Source: a virus
Strand: one strand, 5' to 3'
UHGV virus genome: UHGV-1601690
Length of the DNA: 24,689 nt
Shown: one piece after another, positions 695-23,681 of the stretch
How positions within the stretch are numbered: position 1 is the first letter of the stretch
Layout of the letters: each line of letters begins with the position of its first letter
Made by a program: the position numbers and the translations under genes
The notes under the pieces: model-generated
The model's input: the letters and a program-made list of their open reading frames with translations, nothing else
The model's database searches: none
What the model was told of the DNA's origin: nothing

Positions 695-3600
695 TTATGC
701 GTATTGTTGGATGACGGCCAGAACGTCCGCCACGTTGTGTTTTGTCTCGATAATCCACCAGTTGCCCGGGAAATCGCTGTTCTTCGCCTTCGCTGGCAGC
801 CAGCGAGCGCCGAATTTCGCCTTGATTGCGTCTTTCGCACGGAAAAGAACGCCTTTCATGCCTGAGGCTTCCTGAAGCCCAAATACCTCGCCAGCGGCGA
901 ATTTTGGTGCGTACATCATCTTCAGGTCGGCGGTGGATACGCGATAATTCAGACCAAGAGACTGAGCTATGCTGGTGGCATCACCCTGTATTGATGATAA
1001 CTCTTCTTGTTTCTCGTTTCTGGCGGCAATTTCTTCCTCCGTGATGTTGCCAAGGGCCAGGTTTATCCGATCAGCGTCGGCCTGTTTCTCTTCATCGGTG
1101 CGCCCGGCAAGAACCGTGTTAATTCTCTGCAATATCTCCACATGATTCTTGCGCATGCTGAGCAATTCCGGCGTAACCTCGTTAAGATCCACCAGCCCAA
1201 GGATGGCAAGGTCGGAAAACATTGATACCAGGTTGTAGGTCATGCGATAGCTGAGTTGGCCATAGGCTGATGGCAACTGCACCGCATCCATTTGATAGGC
1301 ATCCATAAATTTAGAGCCGTCGTTTACGACATCCGCAATTGCAGGTGTGATTTTCCCTGTGGTGGCGGCCTCCCTGATTGCTGTTACCCACGATTGAGTC
1401 AGTGCGGCGACTGCATGATTCAGATTGGCTTCCCGTTCTGCTGCGATGCGCGCGCTTGCTGCGTCCATTGCCTGCTTGATCTCGGCTTTATTGCTGTAAA
1501 TGCCAATGGTGCCAAACTGTGCTGTGGTGATCTCATAATCTGACGCCCGGAACTCATGGGTACCGAAAATGGCATTGGTGACCTCAAGTTCAGAATCCCC
1601 GTTACGAGTAGCCCCCTGGCTTGTTTTCTCCGGCATTTTTGCGATCGCATCCGCTATTTTCTCCTGAATTGCTTCAGGGGATAGCGTATCTCCGTATGAC
1701 GCGATTACATCGCCATAATTGGAGCCAAACAATTCAACCAGGAATGTTTCTGCCGAACGGATCTGGCGGTTATTCCCTTCCGACATCATACCAAGCACCC
1801 ATTTTGCAATTGACGACTTCAGCGCGCCGTCACGGCGATCCGGGTAAACCGCATGCTTCAGTGGGTCCGTATAGGTACCAACAAAATCAATGCTATAGCC
1901 TGACTCTGTAGTCTGAACGCCGTATGAGTCAGTGATTTTGATCATGCCGCGCTGCTGGAAACGGTAGAAATCGTCACAGGAAATGATGTCGTTAATCCCG
2001 GCGATGGAGACGCCACCACTGATTTTCTGCATAACAGCATCTTCATCGGGAGTTACATCCACCTGTTTATCCAGCGTCTTCACATCCCAGTTACCCGATT
2101 TGGTGCCTTTGAAGGTAAAGATGATCTCCACATCTGCGCGCTGGCTGTCGAAGTCCAGCGACTTAATGCGAACGATATCACCAGCACAATCATAGTATTG
2201 GCCTACACGCCATGAGCGATCGCCGATAACAAGGAACTCACTCGCATGGTTAACCAGGTCAGGATCAACATCCAGAATGCCTTTATTTATTGCATCCTCC
2301 ACCAGCGGGCGCAGGCGTTTGATATCCGTCGCGGCCTTCTGAGTACGGTTCAATAATTTCTCATAGCGGGAGATGGCTTGAGTGATATTAGCCTTGCGCT
2401 GAATGGCGCTTTTCAACGACGCGCGATACTGTGCTAACAACGTACGGTCTGTGTGATGGACGCTACCCCAGCGGGCCTTCCAGTCTGCATTATCAGCTGC
2501 TTTGGCCATTACCGCCTGTTTGAATTTAGCTACCTCGGCGGTGGTCTTTTCAAGTTCCGCTTTACTTCGCTCTAATTCAGCGGTAAGAGCCGCAACATCC
2601 TCGCCAGCTGCATGTTGCGCCTTGATGTAGTTCTGAAGGTCGATAGCGGCCTGTTCTTTCTGGCGGGCGCGTTGCACGGCTTTCGCCTTATCCATTTGAA
2701 CCTGCATCATTGCCAGACGTTCGCCATCATCCTTAGCGGTATACATCTGCATTTCGATCATATCGTTGGCGTCGGCGTTCTCCATTTCTGACTTATCTGA
2801 ACGGAGGATATCGGAGATCCAGCCTGCTTTACGCTTCAGCGTCTTCAGTCGGTATTCATCGAAAGAACCCTTGCCGCAGTAGTAGTGAACGCGAACGCTT
2901 GCACGGTTGGAGCCAACTCGGGCACCGCGACCGTTTCGTTGCGCAATACTGGCTGGAGTCCATGGCAACGTCAGATGATGGATGTCAGTCGTTCCTCGAT
3001 GCAGGTTGATTCCCACCTCTGCCTTTTTGTTGCAGATGATGATCGGAGTCCGGCCCTCCTGGAAGTCGGCTGCAATCTTTTCCAGACCGCCCAACGACAT
3101 TTCATTTTGCTGCGCGATATAGGCGTCATACAGAGCCATTTGCTCGTTGTATTTCGCTATCTGTGCATCTGTTGGTTCATCCGGTAACTCTTTCGGCGGT
3201 TTAACCGCTTTCAGTTTCTTACCGGTTTTACCTGCCTCGGCAACCGTCTGAGCATTCAGTATCCCCACCTTTGAAGGTTCAAGGTTAAGAGCATTGCAGA
3301 TAATGCGCTTGAGCTTCTGGTGCTGCGTTTTTTCATCGGTGAAGATGATTTGCTTACCTTCCGGGAAAAACTCCTTCAGCGTGGCAATCAGCTTCGCGTA
3401 TTTGGGCGTAACGGGGTGAGTTACGGTCTGTTCGTCAATGCCAAACCTGGCCAGGCGCTTATTCACTTCCTGCTCGAACGCTTCCGGAACCTGCAACTGA
3501 ATAAACTCGCCCTTATCTATCAGGGAGTATTGCGATTGCTGCGTGATTGAATCATCACTGTCGTCGTCTTCGCTGGTGGCTTGTTTAGGCAAACTGTCCG

Positions 3601-6600
3601 CCAGCTGCTGCACCGCATCGGCGTACTCCGGCAGGAAACGATAGGTGATCCGGCGATAGTACAGGTCCATGTCAGTACATACGCGGTCCATATCCCTGAT
3701 TATTGAGAAGATCGGACGGGCTTTCTCGTGCTCAATCACGCCGTCTTCATTGACCGAGGTCGTTACGCCATTGTTGGCTTTGGCCGCCGCTTCCGCCTGC
3801 TGACGCAATTCTTCATACGCCGCCAGTTGTTCTTCAGTAAGTGGTGCATCCTGCTGGTGTTCGTCCAGCTCCGGGATCTCCACGGTATCCTTAACGTCTT
3901 CCGCCGTTTTAAGCGTTACCCAGCGATGGAATATACCGCGCAGCGCATCAAGGTTTTCAAAGCCCACCAGCGCCATTTTTTCTTCAACTTCACCGCTAAT
4001 TTTCTGTACCGTTTCCAGCCTGGTCTTGCCGAAGAATTTAACGAAGTCATCAGGACCGTAGATCCCCATGTTCTGCCAGTATTCCTTCGGCAGAACATGA
4101 GAAAGCATGTTGTATGCATCGATCGGGGTGTTAACGACTGGCGTTGCAGTCAGGAGAACCGGCCCGCGCCCACCATTCTTTTTCATCAGGTACGCGTTTT
4201 TAATTGCCATATCTCGCGCCGATTGCGCCACCGCGCTGGTGGGCAGATAGGCCAGTTGTGACGCTTCGCGACCATTTTTATAGCTATTGCGGTAGTTGTG
4301 ACCTTCGTCAGCGATCACACTATCGAAGCCCATATCCTCAAAGTACGGATACTTCTCTGCTTTTTCGGTGCCGGTATCTGAATACTCCGACAATACCCGG
4401 CGACGCGCGGCCTCTTTGCGGTGGGAGTCGGAGTCCATTGCGCTGGCTACGCGTCCAGCGGCAACGAAGTCATAAAGCATATCCTGTGCATGCTCATCTA
4501 CGGTGTCATCACGTAGCGGAATGCGGGCGTATTGTTCTTTGGTAAACACGACTGCACGGTAATTTGAGTGCGGGATCGCGTTCATCCGCGCCGTGATAGT
4601 GGCTTCATCTGCCAGCTTAAGAGCATCGCGCATAACTGGAGTGCCATCAGTACCAAGAACAGGTTTACCGTTCTCATCGAGCACCTGCACCTGGCGAATC
4701 TGATCGCCATCCATCAGCACATCAAGACCGACGAACAGGTAGTTACTGAATGCCTCTTCACTCAGGAATTCTTTTGCTTCGTAATACCAGTTTTCCAGCA
4801 CTGATTTAGGCACTACATACGCAGTACGGGTGGAGCGACCGTTCTCATAGTTGAACGCCTCAAGCGCCAGCGCGGTCGTGGTTTTACCCAGCCCGGTGCC
4901 GAAGCCCAGGATGCCGCGCCCATCTTCGGACAGTCGGCGCACCTCGCTATTCTGGTAATCAAATGGCTGGCGCTTACCGCTTAATCCCTTCAACCCAAGC
5001 GGATCGCCAGAGTGTTCATACGGGATATTGCTATTGAACACATCGTTGTATTTGGCAACCAGCTCATCGTAGCGATCGTGCGTCTTGATCCACTTATTGA
5101 ACTGGTCCTCAAGCAGTGCCATCTGCTCGCGGTAGCCGTTCGCCGTCGCGCTATCTTTGCCACCGATACGCGCACCATTGAGATACTTTTCCAGCTGTGC
5201 CGGGAACCCGGTCGCGTTTTCACCTGATTTACGGTCCCACTCGTAGCGAATCTCACCTGTTTCTTTATCCTTGCGCTGGACGACACCGTATCGGTGCCCG
5301 ACGAACAGACCATCACCACCGTGATAGGTGTCAGAAACCATTTCGTCGCCTTCCAGCTGCACTGACTGCACATAGCGCAGATCCGGATAGCCGTTTTCCT
5401 GCAAAAATTCCAGAATGACGGAACGGTCGAACCAACGGCTATTGAGCTTAAACCGGATATTCTCTGCTGGCGTCTTGATGCGCTTCTCTTCGATAGCTGC
5501 CAGCTGATTAAGGACGTTGTTCTTTACTGGACCGTCGGGGAGTGTGGCGAGGAATTCCTGTTTTGGAGCCACTATCTCGTTAATGTCGCCGCTGGTGGCG
5601 CGGGCGAACGGAACAATCCCGCCATACGGTGAAACCGCAATACCAGGGGTGCTGGCCAATAAATTAAGCAACTCTTCATCACTGGCTGGCAGTTCGCCGG
5701 TAAACGCAAGGCGGAAATCATCGAGCTGGATTGGATCGCGGGTGAGATCGCTATAGAGATAACGCAGGGTGTCCTGATAGCTGGTGGAGTCATAACTTGC
5801 GCTGGAATCATGCGTAACCAGCTTCCCTGTCAGCTCGTCAGAAATAGTGCCATCCAGCTTAATTGCACCACGGAAAGCAAACCAGGCGCGCGCACCGCTC
5901 CCCGACAATTTCGCTATCGGACCGCGACCGGGGTTACCAAAACGGTCAATCTCTGCCTGCAAACGGGATACCAGAGAAAGGCGCTGCTGTTCGATTTGTT
6001 CAGCACTATGCCCGGCGGCCTTCATGTCCTGATATTCAATTAACATCCGGCCAATCATCGCCCCGCGATACAAGCGTTCACGGTATTTTTCAGGCTGGCT
6101 GTTAATCCAGTCCACCAGCTGCACCATATCGTCGCTGATTGATGTGGTGTACTTATCGCGGACATTTGCCATCTGGGTAAATGTCATGCCGAGACGGCCT
6201 TCTGTTGTAGTCAGGTTACGCTGAAGAGCCTCCCAGCTATCCGCGCCATAACTGGCAGCATCGATCTTAAGTTCCTTCCCGGCATCAGCTTCAATCCAGC
6301 GACCACCAGCATATTTTTGCCATACGCCATTAATCAGGCGCATTTCCCCTTCACCAACAACGTCTGCGGTCGGTGACGGTTCAGCCATATCGAGCAAAGA
6401 CCAGTCGATACGGCTTTCGAAACGATGAATCAGCTTCGCTTTAAGAGCCTGGTTATCAATCTGACCGTCGGCACGAACCTCAATACGCCCCTGGAAGCCC
6501 TTTTCCTGGGTGCCATGAACAAACCGGCGGCCGTCCTTTTCAAACCACTTGCCAGAAATAAACGTTGGCCAAAGCACATTTGCCGATTCGAGAGTGCTTT

Positions 6601-7462
6601 CATCCACCAGGGGGATTTTCTCAGCCATCTCTGCCGGATGTTTGCGCATCAGCACCACATCAACAACTGTACTGGTCCCGTTTGCGTCAAAAGTACCGGT
6701 AGGCAAGCGGTGGGCACCAAGAAATTCAGCTTTCCGTGATAGGCGCAGGCGTAACCGCTTCATGTTTGAACCTGAAACAATGGACGGCGGCACAATCACG
6801 CACATGAATCCGCCTGGCTTTATCTTGTCCAGCATGCGGAGCATGAAGTAAGAACCCATGTCCGTTTCTTCTGCGTAAGGCTTATCGATGTTGCGTGTGT
6901 TATCACGACCACCGAACGGAACGTTACCCACAACATGGTCGAATGAATCGTTAGGCGTGCTTACAGCCAGTTGTTCGAACGGAGAAATCTGTACGCTGTC
7001 TTCCGGGTGCAACAGCTGGTTTATACGACCGGAAACACTGCTGATCTCAGTCGCGGTCATCACCGTACCAACCGGTTTTGTCTCATTAAAAACGCCGGTT
7101 CCCGCCGATGGTTCCAGAGTGTTACCTACGTCCGCGCCGTAGAGCTTCATGATCTCCCAGACACCTTCAGCGATCGGCTTTGGTGTGTAATATTCGGAGA
7201 CGGACCCGCCAATGCCGCCTTCACCGGTGTACCCAGCCAGGATCTGGCGCTGTTCATCTGTCAGTGTCGCGCCGTCCACCAGCGAATTAAGCAAATCTAT
7301 CGCCTTCTGATTCGCCTCACGGCGCAGTCGGTCATAGCTTTTGCCTTCCACCTTTTCCACGCCGTATTTAATCGGCGCTCGGTGAGATGTTATTGCCCTA
7401 ATGTATTTCAATATTTCGCTGACACTTGAACAGCGAAACACCCCCATATATAGCTTGTTCAT
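695..7462 (-). CDS. darB: DarB-type giant anti-restriction protein: N-terminal N6-adenine methyltransferase domain fused to an SF2 helicase
   Basis: Single 2255-aa ORF, the length I recall for P1 DarB. ATG at 7460-7462 preceded by AAGGA. Methyltransferase motif I EPSAGTG (about 7090-7120) and motif IV GNVPF (6914-6928). Helicase motif I GFGTGLGKTT (4877-4906), motif II DEGH (4298-4309), plus TATP and QRNGRGAR motifs further on. Confidence 0.9.
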   Translation of the reverse strand: MNKLYMGVFRCSSVSEILKYIRAITSHRAPIKYGVEKVEGKSYDRLRREANQKAIDLLNSLVDGATLTDEQRQILAGYTGEGGIGGSVSEYYTPKPIAEGVWEIMKLYGADVGNTLEPSAGTGVFNETKPVGTVMTATEISSVSGRINQLLHPEDSVQISPFEQLAVSTPNDSFDHVVGNVPFGGRDNTRNIDKPYAEETDMGSYFMLRMLDKIKPGGFMCVIVPPSIVSGSNMKRLRLRLSRKAEFLGAHRLPTGTFDANGTSTVVDVVLMRKHPAEMAEKIPLVDESTLESANVLWPTFISGKWFEKDGRRFVHGTQEKGFQGRIEVRADGQIDNQALKAKLIHRFESRIDWSLLDMAEPSPTADVVGEGEMRLINGVWQKYAGGRWIEADAGKELKIDAASYGADSWEALQRNLTTTEGRLGMTFTQMANVRDKYTTSISDDMVQLVDWINSQPEKYRERLYRGAMIGRMLIEYQDMKAAGHSAEQIEQQRLSLVSRLQAEIDRFGNPGRGPIAKLSGSGARAWFAFRGAIKLDGTISDELTGKLVTHDSSASYDSTSYQDTLRYLYSDLTRDPIQLDDFRLAFTGELPASDEELLNLLASTPGIAVSPYGGIVPFARATSGDINEIVAPKQEFLATLPDGPVKNNVLNQLAAIEEKRIKTPAENIRFKLNSRWFDRSVILEFLQENGYPDLRYVQSVQLEGDEMVSDTYHGGDGLFVGHRYGVVQRKDKETGEIRYEWDRKSGENATGFPAQLEKYLNGARIGGKDSATANGYREQMALLEDQFNKWIKTHDRYDELVAKYNDVFNSNIPYEHSGDPLGLKGLSGKRQPFDYQNSEVRRLSEDGRGILGFGTGLGKTTTALALEAFNYENGRSTRTAYVVPKSVLENWYYEAKEFLSEEAFSNYLFVGLDVLMDGDQIRQVQVLDENGKPVLGTDGTPVMRDALKLADEATITARMNAIPHSNYRAVVFTKEQYARIPLRDDTVDEHAQDMLYDFVAAGRVASAMDSDSHRKEAARRRVLSEYSDTGTEKAEKYPYFEDMGFDSVIADEGHNYRNSYKNGREASQLAYLPTSAVAQSARDMAIKNAYLMKKNGGRGPVLLTATPVVNTPIDAYNMLSHVLPKEYWQNMGIYGPDDFVKFFGKTRLETVQKISGEVEEKMALVGFENLDALRGIFHRWVTLKTAEDVKDTVEIPELDEHQQDAPLTEEQLAAYEELRQQAEAAAKANNGVTTSVNEDGVIEHEKARPIFSIIRDMDRVCTDMDLYYRRITYRFLPEYADAVQQLADSLPKQATSEDDDSDDSITQQSQYSLIDKGEFIQLQVPEAFEQEVNKRLARFGIDEQTVTHPVTPKYAKLIATLKEFFPEGKQIIFTDEKTQHQKLKRIICNALNLEPSKVGILNAQTVAEAGKTGKKLKAVKPPKELPDEPTDAQIAKYNEQMALYDAYIAQQNEMSLGGLEKIAADFQEGRTPIIICNKKAEVGINLHRGTTDIHHLTLPWTPASIAQRNGRGARVGSNRASVRVHYYCGKGSFDEYRLKTLKRKAGWISDILRSDKSEMENADANDMIEMQMYTAKDDGERLAMMQVQMDKAKAVQRARQKEQAAIDLQNYIKAQHAAGEDVAALTAELERSKAELEKTTAEVAKFKQAVMAKAADNADWKARWGSVHHTDRTLLAQYRASLKSAIQRKANITQAISRYEKLLNRTQKAATDIKRLRPLVEDAINKGILDVDPDLVNHASEFLVIGDRSWRVGQYYDCAGDIVRIKSLDFDSQRADVEIIFTFKGTKSGNWDVKTLDKQVDVTPDEDAVMQKISGGVSIAGINDIISCDDFYRFQQRGMIKITDSYGVQTTESGYSIDFVGTYTDPLKHAVYPDRRDGALKSSIAKWVLGMMSEGNNRQIRSAETFLVELFGSNYGDVIASYGDTLSPEAIQEKIADAIAKMPEKTSQGATRNGDSELEVTNAIFGTHEFRASDYEITTAQFGTIGIYSNKAEIKQAMDAASARIAAEREANLNHAVAALTQSWVTAIREAATTGKITPAIADVVNDGSKFMDAYQMDAVQLPSAYGQLSYRMTYNLVSMFSDLAILGLVDLNEVTPELLSMRKNHVEILQRINTVLAGRTDEEKQADADRINLALGNITEEEIAARNEKQEELSSIQGDATSIAQSLGLNYRVSTADLKMMYAPKFAAGEVFGLQEASGMKGVLFRAKDAIKAKFGARWLPAKAKNSDFPGNWWIIETKHNVADVLAVIQQYA

Positions 7463-7529: not shown

Positions 7530-9260
<1,731 letters not shown>

Positions 9261-10528
9261 ACGGCAAACATTCCCAATTCACAGAGTCCGACCTAAACCA
9301 CATGAAGCGGCTTAGGAATTACAGACTCTCCAAGGGCTAACACTGCCAGCCCGGCAGCTTTTATATTACGGGCCGCGTTAATATCACGATCATGCTCTGC
9401 GCCACATTCCGGGCAGTGCCATTTACGAATATTAAGAGGCATTTTTTGCATGGTGAAGCCGCAACTGCTGCAACGTTTGGAAGAAGGGAAATACTGGTCG
9501 ATAGCGACAATGCTACGTCCACCCCATTCTCCTTTGTACTGGAGTTGGCGTACAAGTTCGCTCCAGCCTGTGTCAGCTATTGCTTTAGACAGCTTCGGGT
9601 TACGGATCATGTTTTTCACTTTAAGGGATTCAACGCAAACAACTTGGTTTTCGTTAATCAGTTTGCGGGACAACTTATGCAGGTTATCCATCCGACAATC
9701 GACTATTCTCGCGTGGAGGCGGGCAACCTTTAAACGTGCTTTGGCGCGGTTCTTTGAGCCTTTTTGTTTCTTGCTCAATCTGCGCTGTAACACTGCTAAT
9801 CGCTTCGCGTATTTAGCGTTGTGTCGAGGATTGCCAGTTTTAAAACCGGTATCGGTGACGAACAAATCTTTTAAACCAATATCAATGCCGACCGTGGAAA
9901 CGGTGATCGGCAGTGATACAGGCTCAAACTCGCAGAGACAGGATACAAAATATCGTCCGGCAGCATCCCTGGTGATAGTGACAGTGGATGGAGCAGACGG
10001 CAACGGACGGCTCCAGCGAACATCTAACGGCTCTTTGCCATGTACAGCTTGCCGTCACGGTATTTAAATGCGCTGGCAGTTAGTTCTGCGGCCTGTTTAT
10101 GCCGCTTGCTCTTAAAAACTGGGTATGCAGCACGCCCGGCGAAAAAGTTAGCAAAAGCCGTTTGTTGGTGGCGCAGAGACTGCTGGAGGGGGACGCAGGA
10201 AACGTCATTCAGCCAGGCGAATTCTGGTTCTTTTTTCAGTGCCGTTAATTTGGCGCTGGCTTGTGCATAGCCGACCCTCTCATGGCGTGCGTAGTACGCA
10301 TCGGTGCGCCAGCGAAGGAGGCTGTTATAGACAAAACGCACACACCCAAAAGTCCGGGCTAATAGCTCGGTTTGTTCGGGAGTTGGATAGAATCGATATT
10401 TATAGGCACGCTTCATGTTCTATATAATACATTGAAACTAATGAGTATATAAATGAATACACGGACGAAAATGTTATCAAAGCCAATATACCAACAGACA
10501 TTAGGTAAGGTAGCTGGAGGGCAATATA
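9261..10528 (-). mobile_element. tnpB-only IS200/IS605-family insertion between prt and pro (ends not determined; coordinates are the surrounding intergenic limits)
   Basis: No Y1 tnpA-sized ORF on either side. Only 32 nt separate the convergent prt and tnpB stops, so the right end must abut or overlap the prt 3' end. Confidence 0.5.
9293..10416 (-). pseudogene. tnpB: tnpB (IS200/IS605-family OrfB, RNA-guided nuclease family), split by a frameshift
   Basis: N-terminal fragment 10024-10416 (MKRAYKYRFYPTPEQTELL...) and C-terminal fragment 9293-10003 (RuvC-like region and CxxC...CxxC zinc finger, KRCSSCG...HCPECG) lie in different frames. The C-terminal frame is open upstream and reads PLDVRWSRPLPSAPSTVT, continuous with the N-terminal fragment if one base is restored near 10027-10033. 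Confidence 0.85.
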
Positions 10529-11548
10529 ATGACTGATGTTTTGAAAACGGTCACTGACCGCTTTTGTCTCTATAGCAATGCTCGAAAAGGTCGCCAGAAC
10601 GGGCGACAGTATGTATTAAGCGCGGTTAAGACCATGCTTGAAAGCAAGGAAACTCAGGAAGGTTTACGCCTTGGAGAGCTTTTCGGCTATTACGGTCACG
10701 GTCGCCGACAGCTGACCGGCAAACTGGAAGTACCAGAAACCAGCGTAATCATGGTGGAAGGTCGCCCGGTCATAATCGACAATGTTCCAGCGTGCCGAAC
10801 AGTGGCTATATCTGTTGACGACAACGGCATCGTTACCCATACACAGGAAATTCTTAATACAGAGCCGGGGAAAATCGTCGCCGCGATGATCGAAAGCCGT
10901 GCTGGTGGCTGGAGCTGGGCCACTGGCGGGCGCGAGTCCGGGAAAATCGCTGTAACCACCAGCTTCCATGGTGTGGATTATGTGACAACGCCGAACTATA
11001 TAAGTCTGGATCATCCTGCCAGCGCCGGAATGTTTGAAAGCGCGGATTCTAAATCTTTACTGGCAGAGTCCCTGGCGGCGCATGGGTACTCCGACGAGTC
11101 AGTGCAGGCCGTTATATCCCATTACGGCAAAATGGCTGAACTGGAAATGATGGTGGAGGCGACAGAGCGTACGGCAGAACTGGAGACCGCACTACTCGAA
11201 AGCCAGGGCCGCCACCTCGAAGCAATGGCCAAGATCGCAGATGCTGAAGCGCGAATTGCTTTGCTGGAGGAAACAGCGGGTATCCGCGACGATGTGCTGG
11301 CAGCAATGCAAGACGAACTGGATAACCTCCCGATCTTCGTCTCCGCCGCCCAAAAAGACGCATTCCGCCTCAAAGAACCTGGTGATGCAAAAATCGTTGC
11401 CACACTTTTCGAATCTCTGATCAAAGTTGGCGCGCGCAACTTGCCTGTCACTAAGAAAATTAAAGAGGTTCCGCAAGCGGCTAACGTCCAGGCACCGCGT
11501 GAGACAAGCATCATCACGTTTAATAATTCAATCAATCCGTTCAAATAA
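10529..11548 (+). CDS. pro: Putative prohead protease/scaffold (P1 Pro position)
   Basis: 339-aa ORF, ATG preceded by GGAGGG. C-terminal third is coiled-coil-like (AELEMMVEATERTAELETALLES...). Assignment by synteny. Confidence 0.55.
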   Translation: MTDVLKTVTDRFCLYSNARKGRQNGRQYVLSAVKTMLESKETQEGLRLGELFGYYGHGRRQLTGKLEVPETSVIMVEGRPVIIDNVPACRTVAISVDDNGIVTHTQEILNTEPGKIVAAMIESRAGGWSWATGGRESGKIAVTTSFHGVDYVTTPNYISLDHPASAGMFESADSKSLLAESLAAHGYSDESVQAVISHYGKMAELEMMVEATERTAELETALLESQGRHLEAMAKIADAEARIALLEETAGIRDDVLAAMQDELDNLPIFVSAAQKDAFRLKEPGDAKIVATLFESLIKVGARNLPVTKKIKEVPQAANVQAPRETSIITFNNSINPFK

Positions 11549-22112: not shown

Positions 22113-22181
22113 AAGTTCCCTCCTACGTTGTCAGGAGGTAATGGTATGCAAAGTAACTTCTCAACCGGTCATGTTGCTTGA

Positions 22182-22213
22182 CATCCTCCACGTCCTTTAG
22201 AGCGTGGAGGATG
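22182..22213. repeat. Perfect 11-bp-stem hairpin adjacent to the start of the intron-like region
   Basis: CATCCTCCACG - TCCTTTAGAG - CGTGGAGGATG; ends at 22213, and GTGCG begins at 22215. Confidence 0.75.
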
Positions 22214-22214
22214 T

Positions 22215-23060
22215 GTGCGCCCAGCATGGGCGCGATCTTGGAGGTGAAAGCCCTCCCGCGAGCTGACCACAGCGAGCGAAATGAAGTGCAACTGCGTGAG
22301 GGCGACCGGGCGTGGGGAGGAAGCACGGAATGAACCCGTGAGCCGATGAACGAGAATCGGATATGAGGCGCGATGGAGCAAGGCGAGCAGGCACATCACT
22401 GCGAAGCTTTCGTGGTCAAGTCGAAGTCGCGCAGATCCGACGGTTGTGCGGGGAAGGATCGCGTTCTTACCTGGGGAGTTCTCGCCTCATGCCTGAAAGG
22501 GCAACGTCGTAAGACGGAGCGAGAAGTCAGCAGAGGCCGTTGTAGTCAGGACTCCGACGAAGGGCCGAACGAGAAGGAAAGCCAGAAGATATGACTCTTG
22601 ACAGGACATTGCGTCAGAAGCCGGGGAAGCCCGGTACGGACCCGCATGCCGGGTGGTGTGGCAGGGGCGCAGCCCTTGTGCTCCCCCCTATGCCGATCAA
22701 GCAGAACATTGTGCTGGGCCTCTGACGCAGCTCCTTGATGGTCTTGGCATCGTGCTTAAGTGGATTGGTGTCGTCCCTGATAGGATCATGGAGGCAGAAT
22801 GAAACTCAAAAATCCGGGATAGCACGCAAAACAGGCTGCACAAAAAGCGCAGGTTGCGTAGGAGTGAAATCCCGCTCCCAAAAAATGGTGCAGAAGTTGC
22901 GGCAGTGGTCATCCGACGCACTGGAAAATAACAAACCCGCCGTGACCAGAATCGGAGGCCTGAGGGAGTGACCGAAAAACCGGACAACCCAGGCAGCAAA
23001 TACCCGCTGGATGAGGCATGGTTCCGGCAGATAATACCGAAAACCGCCAGACACACTGGA
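22215..23060 (+). ncRNA. Candidate 5' fragment of a group II intron (domains I-III and start of IV), truncated
   Basis: Starts GTGCGCCCAGCATGGGCGCG (compare the remembered Ll.LtrB 5' end GUGCGCCCAGAUAGGG). About 850 nt that look GC-rich by eye, with stops in all frames and many short helices; ends abruptly where AT-rich DNA begins near 23060. No reverse-transcriptase ORF or domain V present. Confidence 0.4.
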
Positions 23061-23117: not shown

Positions 23118-23681
23118 ATGCTGAACAATAGAAATATGACTATTAATGAACTTAAAGACTGTATTCACTATGAAGTAATTGGTAGCGAGCGTCCTTTCTC
23201 TTGGCGAAAAGCAATTGTTCGCGCAATAAAACATAGAAGAGTTCGTTATTTATTTTGGTGGCGCATATCAAAATATCTTTTTGATAAAGGCGGATACAGG
23301 CGAAAGGTTGCAGGGAAAATAGAACGCTTCATTCTTGACAAATACAATGTAACCGTTCCCTTAACGGTAAATATAGGGAAAGGGTTTGACATATCTTATC
23401 TCAATGGCGTTGTTATCGCTCACAAAGTCACAATCGGTGAAAATTGTTCAATTAAGCCCGGAGTAACTATTGGACTTCGCGGGGAATTTAATGACATGGA
23501 TATTGTTATAGGAGATAATGTGACCATTGGTTGTAATGCCACCATTCTTGGTGGCAAAGTGCGTATAGGAAACAATGTCACAATAGGTGCTCATGCATTG
23601 GTATTGCATGATATTCCTGATGATTCAACATTCATCACTAAATTTCAGTCTGAAGTTATCTGCTCGTCCTCCCGCACATAA
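23118..23681 (+). CDS. Hexapeptide-repeat (left-handed beta-helix) acetyltransferase, probable polysaccharide O-acetyltransferase; AT-rich cargo
   Basis: 187-aa ORF with consecutive hexapeptide repeats ([24 protein letters not shown]...[35 protein letters not shown]). AT-rich by eye, preceded by an AT-rich promoter-like stretch containing TATAAT. Start may be the second ATG at 23136. The 3' end overlaps the tfa 3' end convergently. Confidence 0.8.

Follow-up and report, generated by a model that had tools for sequence, protein, structure and literature searches.

A decaying tnpB-only element, probably descended from a single insertion, separates prt and pro in a P1-like phage-plasmid

In phage P1 the genes prt (portal) and pro (head processing) are adjacent, sharing an 8-nt overlap, ATGACTGA, and the late promoter LPpro lies upstream of both. 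The 24,689-nt stretch of virus genome UHGV-1601690 analysed here (the window) is a segment of a P1-like (Punavirus) phage-plasmid in which the same two genes are parted by an antisense tnpB gene split between two reading frames. This arrangement raises the question of how a gene for an RNA-guided nuclease came to lie between two late genes, and which of its parts could still function. An earlier reading of the locus from its letters alone (the original prediction) had proposed a frameshifted, tnpB-only insertion sequence wedged between neighbours that are contiguous in P1, and on that adjacency it was right. We conclude, with a probability of about 0.85, that the element goes back to a single ancestral insertion in a P1-like sub-lineage, where it is now a fixed, decaying passenger with a dead nuclease.

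The antisense gene was recognized as a member of the TnpB family (OrfB of IS200/IS605) by Pfam domains on minus-strand open reading frames (ORFs), as originally proposed. The ORF at 10416-10024 matches HTH_OrfB_IS605 (E 5e-22), and that at 10003-9293 matches both OrfB_IS605 (E 2e-25) and Cas12f1-like_TNB (E 5e-24). Alignment to P1, which had been suggested as a check, returned clean insertion boundaries and no target duplication. Where P1 runs without interruption from ...GGGAAACGATA into ATGACTGATG..., the window has the same ...GGGAAACGATA, then the element, from TTGACAATTG to GGGCAATATA, and then ATGACTGATG...; in its shortest form, CGATA joined to ATGACTGA in P1 has become CGATA, TTGAC...CAATATA and ATGACTGA in the window. 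The limit on the prt side, originally put at 9261, had to be moved to 9241, 20 nt inside the present prt ORF. This limit, which is the right end of the element on its own strand, can be placed independently of P1, since some 70 distinct copies (Enterobacterales, Halomonas, Zobellella, Nonomuraea and viral contigs) are conserved as far as ...GAGCAGTCAA (GTCAA), with flanks that diverge immediately beyond it.

At its other end the element lies, on its own strand, directly 3' of TCAT, that is, exactly at the pro start codon. The same tetranucleotide is kept at the left-end boundary of 46 independent insertions among relatives, one of which is a spurious boundary call; these boundaries follow from a rule anchored on motifs, whose calls were inspected by eye and compared with five annotated records. 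Subterminal hairpins, which IS200/IS605 elements carry at both ends, were found at the right end, where the hairpin includes two G-T pairs, and not at the left, where folding of the DNA gives only -2.5 kcal/mol (z +1.06) as against a perfect 8-bp hairpin in a Citrobacter relative. As the original prediction had it, no Y1 tnpA accompanies the gene: tblastn with the TnpA of IS200C returned only noise (E>1) from the 24.7-kb window, with a best E of 1.7. Its absence is expected, as most family members are non-autonomous (bioRxiv 10.1101/2023.03.14.532601). With TnpB domains, and insertion 3' of a conserved motif without target duplication, the element is a tnpB-only, non-autonomous IS200/IS605-type insertion between prt and pro.

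The original prediction had allowed that P1-like relatives might all carry the gene intact here, with no insertion boundaries. Many relatives do carry it intact, but those copies still show boundaries. Because of these boundaries, and because the element is missing from P1, P7, RCS47, SJ46 and 447 E. coli genomes, the insertion interpretation stands. Among the matches listed, 39 complete E. coli records (counted at 95% identity or more) have at this position an intact element, encoding a 376-aa TnpB; every match listed covers 1298 nt where the query has 1291. In PLSDB the insertion is found in 25 plasmids; the 447 genomes with an uninterrupted junction come from 491 complete E. coli genomes that hold it. 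Public P1-like plasmids such as p50579417_1 (NZ_CP033882, here L004; TnpB WP_001312284.1) share the identical site and ends, and their copies, annotated as intact, are about 99.7% identical to that of the window, which lacks 7 bp and has two substitutions of its own. The interior of the left end has no counterpart at any other retrieved locus, and in PLSDB it occurs only at this site, in 25 Escherichia plasmids, at 100% identity. Since this interior is confined to P1-lineage copies at one site, we infer a single insertion event followed by inheritance. The left-end hairpin needed by TnpA is missing throughout the P1 lineage, and the element is therefore probably immobile. Some insertion-bearing P1-like plasmids also carry IS200C, with a Y1 tnpA (908-1366 in L004), about 1.1 kb from the element; in L004 it lies between pro and the lysis genes, and it is absent from the window.

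The nature of the lesion in tnpB proved to differ from what was first proposed. A split near 10027-10033 is supported by tblastn with an intact relative, of which residues 1-130 align to 10416-10027 and residues 129-376 to 10039-9296, each at 99.2% identity; the change responsible, however, is not a single-base loss but a 7-bp deletion, with an equal effect on the reading frame. Alignments to L004 and five other P1-lineage copies define it as the loss of one heptamer from GCAAAGAGCAAAGA: the sequence is ATGGCAAAGAGCAAAGAGCCG in intact copies, where GCAAAGA occurs twice in tandem, and ATGGCAAAGAGCCGTTAG in the window, where it occurs once and a stop codon directly follows. Over the whole element the window differs from L004 by this one 7-nt gap and three substitutions. 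Two substitutions in tnpB are private to the window, at 9632 and 9571, the latter turning a conserved DAGW into DTGW. The tandem repeat arises from the codons chosen for an A-K-S-K-E peptide that is conserved family-wide; because this peptide is conserved and aligns without gaps to the TnpB of ISDra2, the long, two-heptamer form is ancestral. The short form was found in no other copy among the matches listed (the 39 E. coli records and the PLSDB copies) or in six aligned loci. Slippage between the two tandem heptamers is the likeliest cause of the deletion, and the comparison as a whole points to an old and shared insertion with a deletion private to the window.

As the protein breaks off at residue 130, before it reaches RuvC, the window copy cannot cleave, and its nuclease is dead. 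The 3' fragment has no start codon (its listed ORF, 10003-9293, comprises 236 aa), and the window thus lacks the single uninterrupted ORF, RuvC triad included, that is expected of an OMEGA nuclease. The RuvC D/E/D motifs themselves (GIDIG, VESLK and HDRDINAARN) align to those of ISDra2 TnpB. A TldR-type nuclease-dead repressor was considered and dropped, as the intact allele has conserved D/E/D motifs and the window copy suffers from a frameshift, not from the loss of an active site.

Decay of tnpB recurs within the P1 lineage. The nearest relative, CP100027.1 (L171), has zero mismatches to the window over 1838 nt except the 7 bp; its alignment stops inside tnpB at about window position 9763, beyond which lnu(G) (lincosamide resistance) is annotated, and this indicates what would be a second, independent disruption of the gene. 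Another copy (L142) has a 2-bp insertion in tnpB, and a third (L002) has two indels there, although that record is error-rich. The features of the locus and its surroundings are collected in Table 1.

Table 1. Positions of the element, its parts and the neighbouring genes in the window
Feature	Position	Strand	Remarks
Whole insertion element	9241..10528	minus	1288 bp (intact relatives 1295 bp); tnpB-only, IS200/IS605 type
Target/transposon-adjacent motif TCAT	10529..10532	minus	complementary to ATGA (pro start codon and the base after it)
Left end	10417..10528	minus	only first ~13 nt like relatives; subterminal hairpin absent
tnpB 5' fragment	10024..10416	minus	residues 1-129 plus Arg; TAG at 10026-10024; 130 aa
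7-bp deletion site	10032..10038	minus	one GCAAAGA left; two in tandem in intact copies
tnpB 3' fragment	9293..10039	minus	shifted frame; residues 129-376, RuvC and zinc ribbon; stop 9295-9293
Right end with guide-RNA (omega RNA) scaffold	9241..9365	minus	overlaps tnpB 3' end
Guide-equivalent flank TATCGTTTCCCTCTTTAAAG	9221..9240	minus	directly 3' of right end; antisense to prt 3' end
New prt 3' end	9240..9260	plus	element-derived ATT GAC AAT TGT CCG CCA TAA
Promoter-like TTTATA-18-TATAAT	10399..10428	plus	points from left end to pro; low confidence
Shine-Dalgarno-like GGAGGG, element-borne	10516..10521	plus	7 nt upstream of pro ATG
darB	695-7462	minus	
prt	7539-9260	plus	
tnpB region	between prt and pro	minus	
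pro	10529-11548	plus	
lysozyme, ssb, then darA/ddrB region	after pro in gene order		

The guide-RNA scaffold gene, by contrast with the broken tnpB, is intact. The covariance search that had been proposed for this region located the scaffold at 9241-9365 on the minus strand: a model built from 52 sequences, with every P1-lineage copy excluded, matches there over its full length (128.3 bits, E 6.5e-42). The consensus derived from 53 non-redundant right ends has five helices, with compensatory changes in 20 of the 33 pairs, and the scaffold RNA of the window folds at -54.2 kcal/mol (z -4.7). The scaffold end of the element was expected to abut or overlap the prt 3' end, and it does so, reaching to 9241 inside the prt ORF. 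Rfam models, at their gathering thresholds, found no guide-RNA family in the element. Membership of RAGATH-18 (RF03064), the sole match that a permissive threshold brought up, was rejected, the score of 21.8 bits (E 0.39) falling below the threshold of 44.9, so that the resemblance is architectural only. We picture the following course of events. The element would have inserted once, in an ancestor of a P1-like phage-plasmid sub-lineage, presumably mobilized in trans by a Y1 TnpA, and would have landed 3' of the bottom-strand TCAT, between the last prt codons and the pro ATG; later, slippage at the heptamers would have killed TnpB, while the RNA scaffold gene survived.

A TnpB protein binds RNA transcribed through the right end of its element, of which the 16-20 nt beyond that end act as the guide (Karvelis et al., PMC8612924; Meers et al., bioRxiv 10.1101/2023.03.14.532601), and it cuts DNA in which the transposon-adjacent motif (TAM) is followed by the guide sequence, which is the empty site (PMC8612924; bioRxiv 10.1101/2023.03.14.532601). 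Taking the guide length of 16-20 nt from ISDra2 TnpB (PMC8612924), we compared the flank of the right end with occupied and empty sites. On its minus strand, P1 has TCAT+TATCGTTTCCCTCTTTAAAG at the unbroken junction; in the window, the left end puts TATATTGCCC after TCAT, and this agrees with the guide at positions 1-3 only. TAM and guide match are thus both present at the empty site and absent as a pair from the occupied one. The guide-equivalent flank is also antisense to the native Shine-Dalgarno (SD) sequence of pro (AGAGGGA, 9227-9233, plus strand). In intact copies, the 376-aa TnpB and the right-end RNA would form a nuclease, and, as guide and TCAT are found together only at the uninterrupted prt/pro junction, it would cleave insertion-free P1-like genomes, with homing or the exclusion of competitors as the outcome. 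As 447 of the 491 junctions in E. coli are uninterrupted, intact copies are predicted to cut about 90% of P1-like relatives.

The insertion has consequences for both of its neighbours. The C-terminus of Prt, which ends in ...GNDND in P1, ends in ...GNDIDNCPP in the window, IDNCPP having replaced ND; a change of this kind was foreseen, as was the distance of 32 nt between the tnpB stop (9293-9295) and the convergent prt stop (9258-9260). In typical relatives, two of the three frames meet a stop no more than six codons from the right end; the window uses the third frame, which adds IDNCPP and a stop to Prt. About 1.3 kb of antisense-oriented DNA now lies between two late genes, and pro, although it has kept its ATG, finds its native SD sequence 1.3 kb away.

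These consequences bear on the alternative that survives best, although we consider it unlikely: that the element is retained as a co-opted regulatory cassette, whose left end supplies an SD sequence and perhaps a promoter for pro, with tnpB as dispensable cargo. The left end does place GGAGGG 7 nt before the pro ATG, with an SD complement at the same position in 28 of 37 related elements, and its TTTATA-18-TATAAT site faces pro, but such promoter-like sites are no more frequent than in shuffled sequence (2 against 2.1 expected), and a scan at chance level is uninformative on function. Likewise, the interior of the left end is unique to the lineage, fully conserved in 25 plasmids and unchanged through several independent inactivations of tnpB; copies that are about 99.7% identical are, however, too recent for conservation to reveal selection, and an element that cannot be excised persists whether it is useful or not.

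A second alternative, which we regard as improbable, is that sequencing or assembly produced the 7-bp deletion, the gene being in truth as intact as in its relatives. It could be an assembly error: every other P1-lineage copy examined keeps both heptamers, the 7 bp are all that sets CP100027.1 apart from the window over the 1838 nt compared, and L002, a public entry for this element, is visibly full of errors, many of its genes being split. Against this, the exact loss of one of two heptamers is classic replication slippage and unlike homopolymer-type read errors, the window has its two further private substitutions in tnpB, and other copies carry independent lesions in the gene. That the split is a deliberate switch, by phase variation at the heptamers or by programmed ribosomal frameshifting to full-length TnpB, we hold to be very improbable, for, although the lesion falls within a tandem repeat and the overlap between the frames is limited to a few codons, the repeat has just two units, owed to the codons of a conserved peptide, the single unit that remains does not favour reversion by slippage, the short form occurs in no other copy among the matches listed, and the TAG follows at once with no slippery heptamer or downstream structure seen in the sequence, on which grounds frameshifting was dropped.

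The single-insertion reading also has points that weigh against it besides the possible assembly error. No insertion-free plasmid was found with flanks identical to those of the window (the best is 99.5% over 600 nt), and there is accordingly no direct trace of recent homing or excision. The sole 'phage' record with the element, vB_EcoM-673R5, is not an isolated virion but a predicted phage-like plasmid (bioRxiv 10.1101/2022.06.29.498070). Terminator-like hairpins number nine over both strands, where 1.6 are expected; eight are on the plus strand, in and beside the element, one of them at 9343-9357, just past prt. Finally, homologues are the source for the nuclease activity, guide length and TAM requirement ascribed to this TnpB.

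The closest well-characterized system is ISDra2 TnpB of Deinococcus radiodurans (PDB 8EXA, 8BF8, 8H1J), to which the intact allele aligns over residues 3-365 (E 7e-77). Both elements encode a guide RNA from the tnpB 3' end through the right end, insert 3' of a short motif without duplication and share a homing logic in which TAM and guide occur together only at the empty site. They differ in the motif, TCAT (often TTCAT) here and TTGAT in ISDra2, in the lack of a tnpA partner here, and in the broken ORF and lost left-end hairpin of the window. Nearer relatives are the copy between ybhB and bioA of E. coli, labelled ISEc42, and gipA of Gifsy-1, which have the 376-aa TnpB together with the same right end, scaffold and TCAT target and also lie antisense, exactly on a start codon (of ybhB, and of a gpU homologue in Gifsy-1). 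Their nucleotide identity to the window element is just 79-81% or so, and they keep the perfect subterminal left-end hairpin that the P1 lineage does not. The record of vB_EcoM-673R5 labels its P1-lineage copy ISEc42 as well, and genome-survey papers use this name for E. coli copies; the chromosomal copies retrieved are only about 80% identical to the window element, for which ISEc42 is a candidate name. RAGATH-18 RNAs, the guides of a set of IS607 TnpBs (PMC11061315), offer a more distant parallel. The weak match, at 9271-9336 on the minus strand, has the same GGAG...UGAA internal-loop architecture, and the TAM of those systems is also translation-initiation-like (AGGAG; PMC11061315). In contrast to them, the present protein is ISDra2-like rather than of the IS607 clade, and its scaffold overlaps the coding sequence, which theirs do not (PMC11061315).

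The position of the element on the pro start codon is not peculiar to the P1 lineage. In 38 of the 46 insertion events after TCAT, the TAM, read on the opposite strand, supplies the ATG of an ORF 60 or more codons long, as against 29.5% of random TCAT sites at the same loci (binomial p ~1e-13), and in all five annotated cases it is exactly the annotated start codon: pro (P1), ybhB (E. coli), trbC (a Citrobacter plasmid), the gpU homologue (Gifsy-1) and traX (a Serratia plasmid). In 21 of 37 events, a strict SD complement lies at +3 to +16 in the flank of the right end, compared with 8.8% of control sites (Fisher p ~9e-13), and 28 of 37 TCAT-type elements have an SD complement of their own at the same left-end offset. 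Sister elements that use TTAT or TTAC show a long ORF in 3 of 17 cases and an SD complement in 0 of 11. Since TCAT members are found almost exclusively where the SD sequence and spacer of a host gene meet its ATG, in antisense, their guides would always be aimed at translation-initiation regions; since the left ends of most contain an SD complement at that same spacing, the displaced gene would be left with a ribosome-binding site. The SD sequence alone cannot be the cause of the placement, because Halomonas-type members, which have no SD mimic, are placed on start codons all the same. One possible explanation is that harmless sites are selected, with the surrogate SD sequence as a help, and a true insertion preference is another. 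At the other boundary, the right-end terminus TCAA reads TTGA on the opposite strand and gives the stop of the upstream gene in the Serratia plasmid (L169, 2381-2384).

We are tempted to see the TCAT branch as a specialized 'start-codon squatter', a habit that would let the element sit in the essential prt-pro operon and would turn intact copies into a gene drive, or a weapon, against those relatives, roughly 90%, that are insertion-free; this picture is tentative, and we put it somewhat short of even odds. We found no description in the searchable literature of start-codon placement, of a TCAT TAM or of TnpB in P1-like phage-plasmids.

Elsewhere in the window, an ORF for an OmpC-like porin lies within the phage-plasmid at 13289-14227 (minus strand) and is named ompC in related plasmids; it covers positions 31-337 of the 337 of the Porin_1 profile, the signal-peptide end being missing. 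A segment at 22178-22216 (minus strand), CCTCCACGCTCTAAAGGACGTGGAGGATGTCAA, looks like the right-end hairpin of an IS200/IS605 element standing alone, with ...GATGTCAA as its terminus, and the guide-RNA covariance model matches it weakly (14.7 bits, rough E 0.002). Directly after this hairpin, the 5' part of a group II intron begins with GTGCGCCC and extends over 22217-22565 (plus strand), with matches to Rfam D1-D4 models at 96.9 and 41.6 bits. As no match to domain V/VI and no long reverse-transcriptase ORF were found downstream, the intron appears to be truncated. A gene for a hexapeptide-repeat acyltransferase (23118-23681, plus strand) stands between this fragment and the genes for tail-fibre assembly.

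The window itself is of little weight, being a pseudogenized copy of a common selfish element that is already annotated in dozens of public plasmids. What the analysis adds is the exact boundaries, the type of lesion, the intact guide-RNA gene, the predicted target and the start-codon pattern. For annotation, it follows that a tnpB gene beside a start codon need not mean that the gene is inactivated. The guide of intact copies matches the prt/pro junction of every insertion-free relative, which would make them a natural and testable case of an RNA-guided nuclease at work among phage-plasmids in competition, elements that matter for the spread of resistance genes. Placement on the start codon, together with a surrogate ribosome-binding site, suggests how such elements may settle in operons without killing the downstream gene; it also bears on the choice of targets by TnpB, and the pattern deserves a study of its own.

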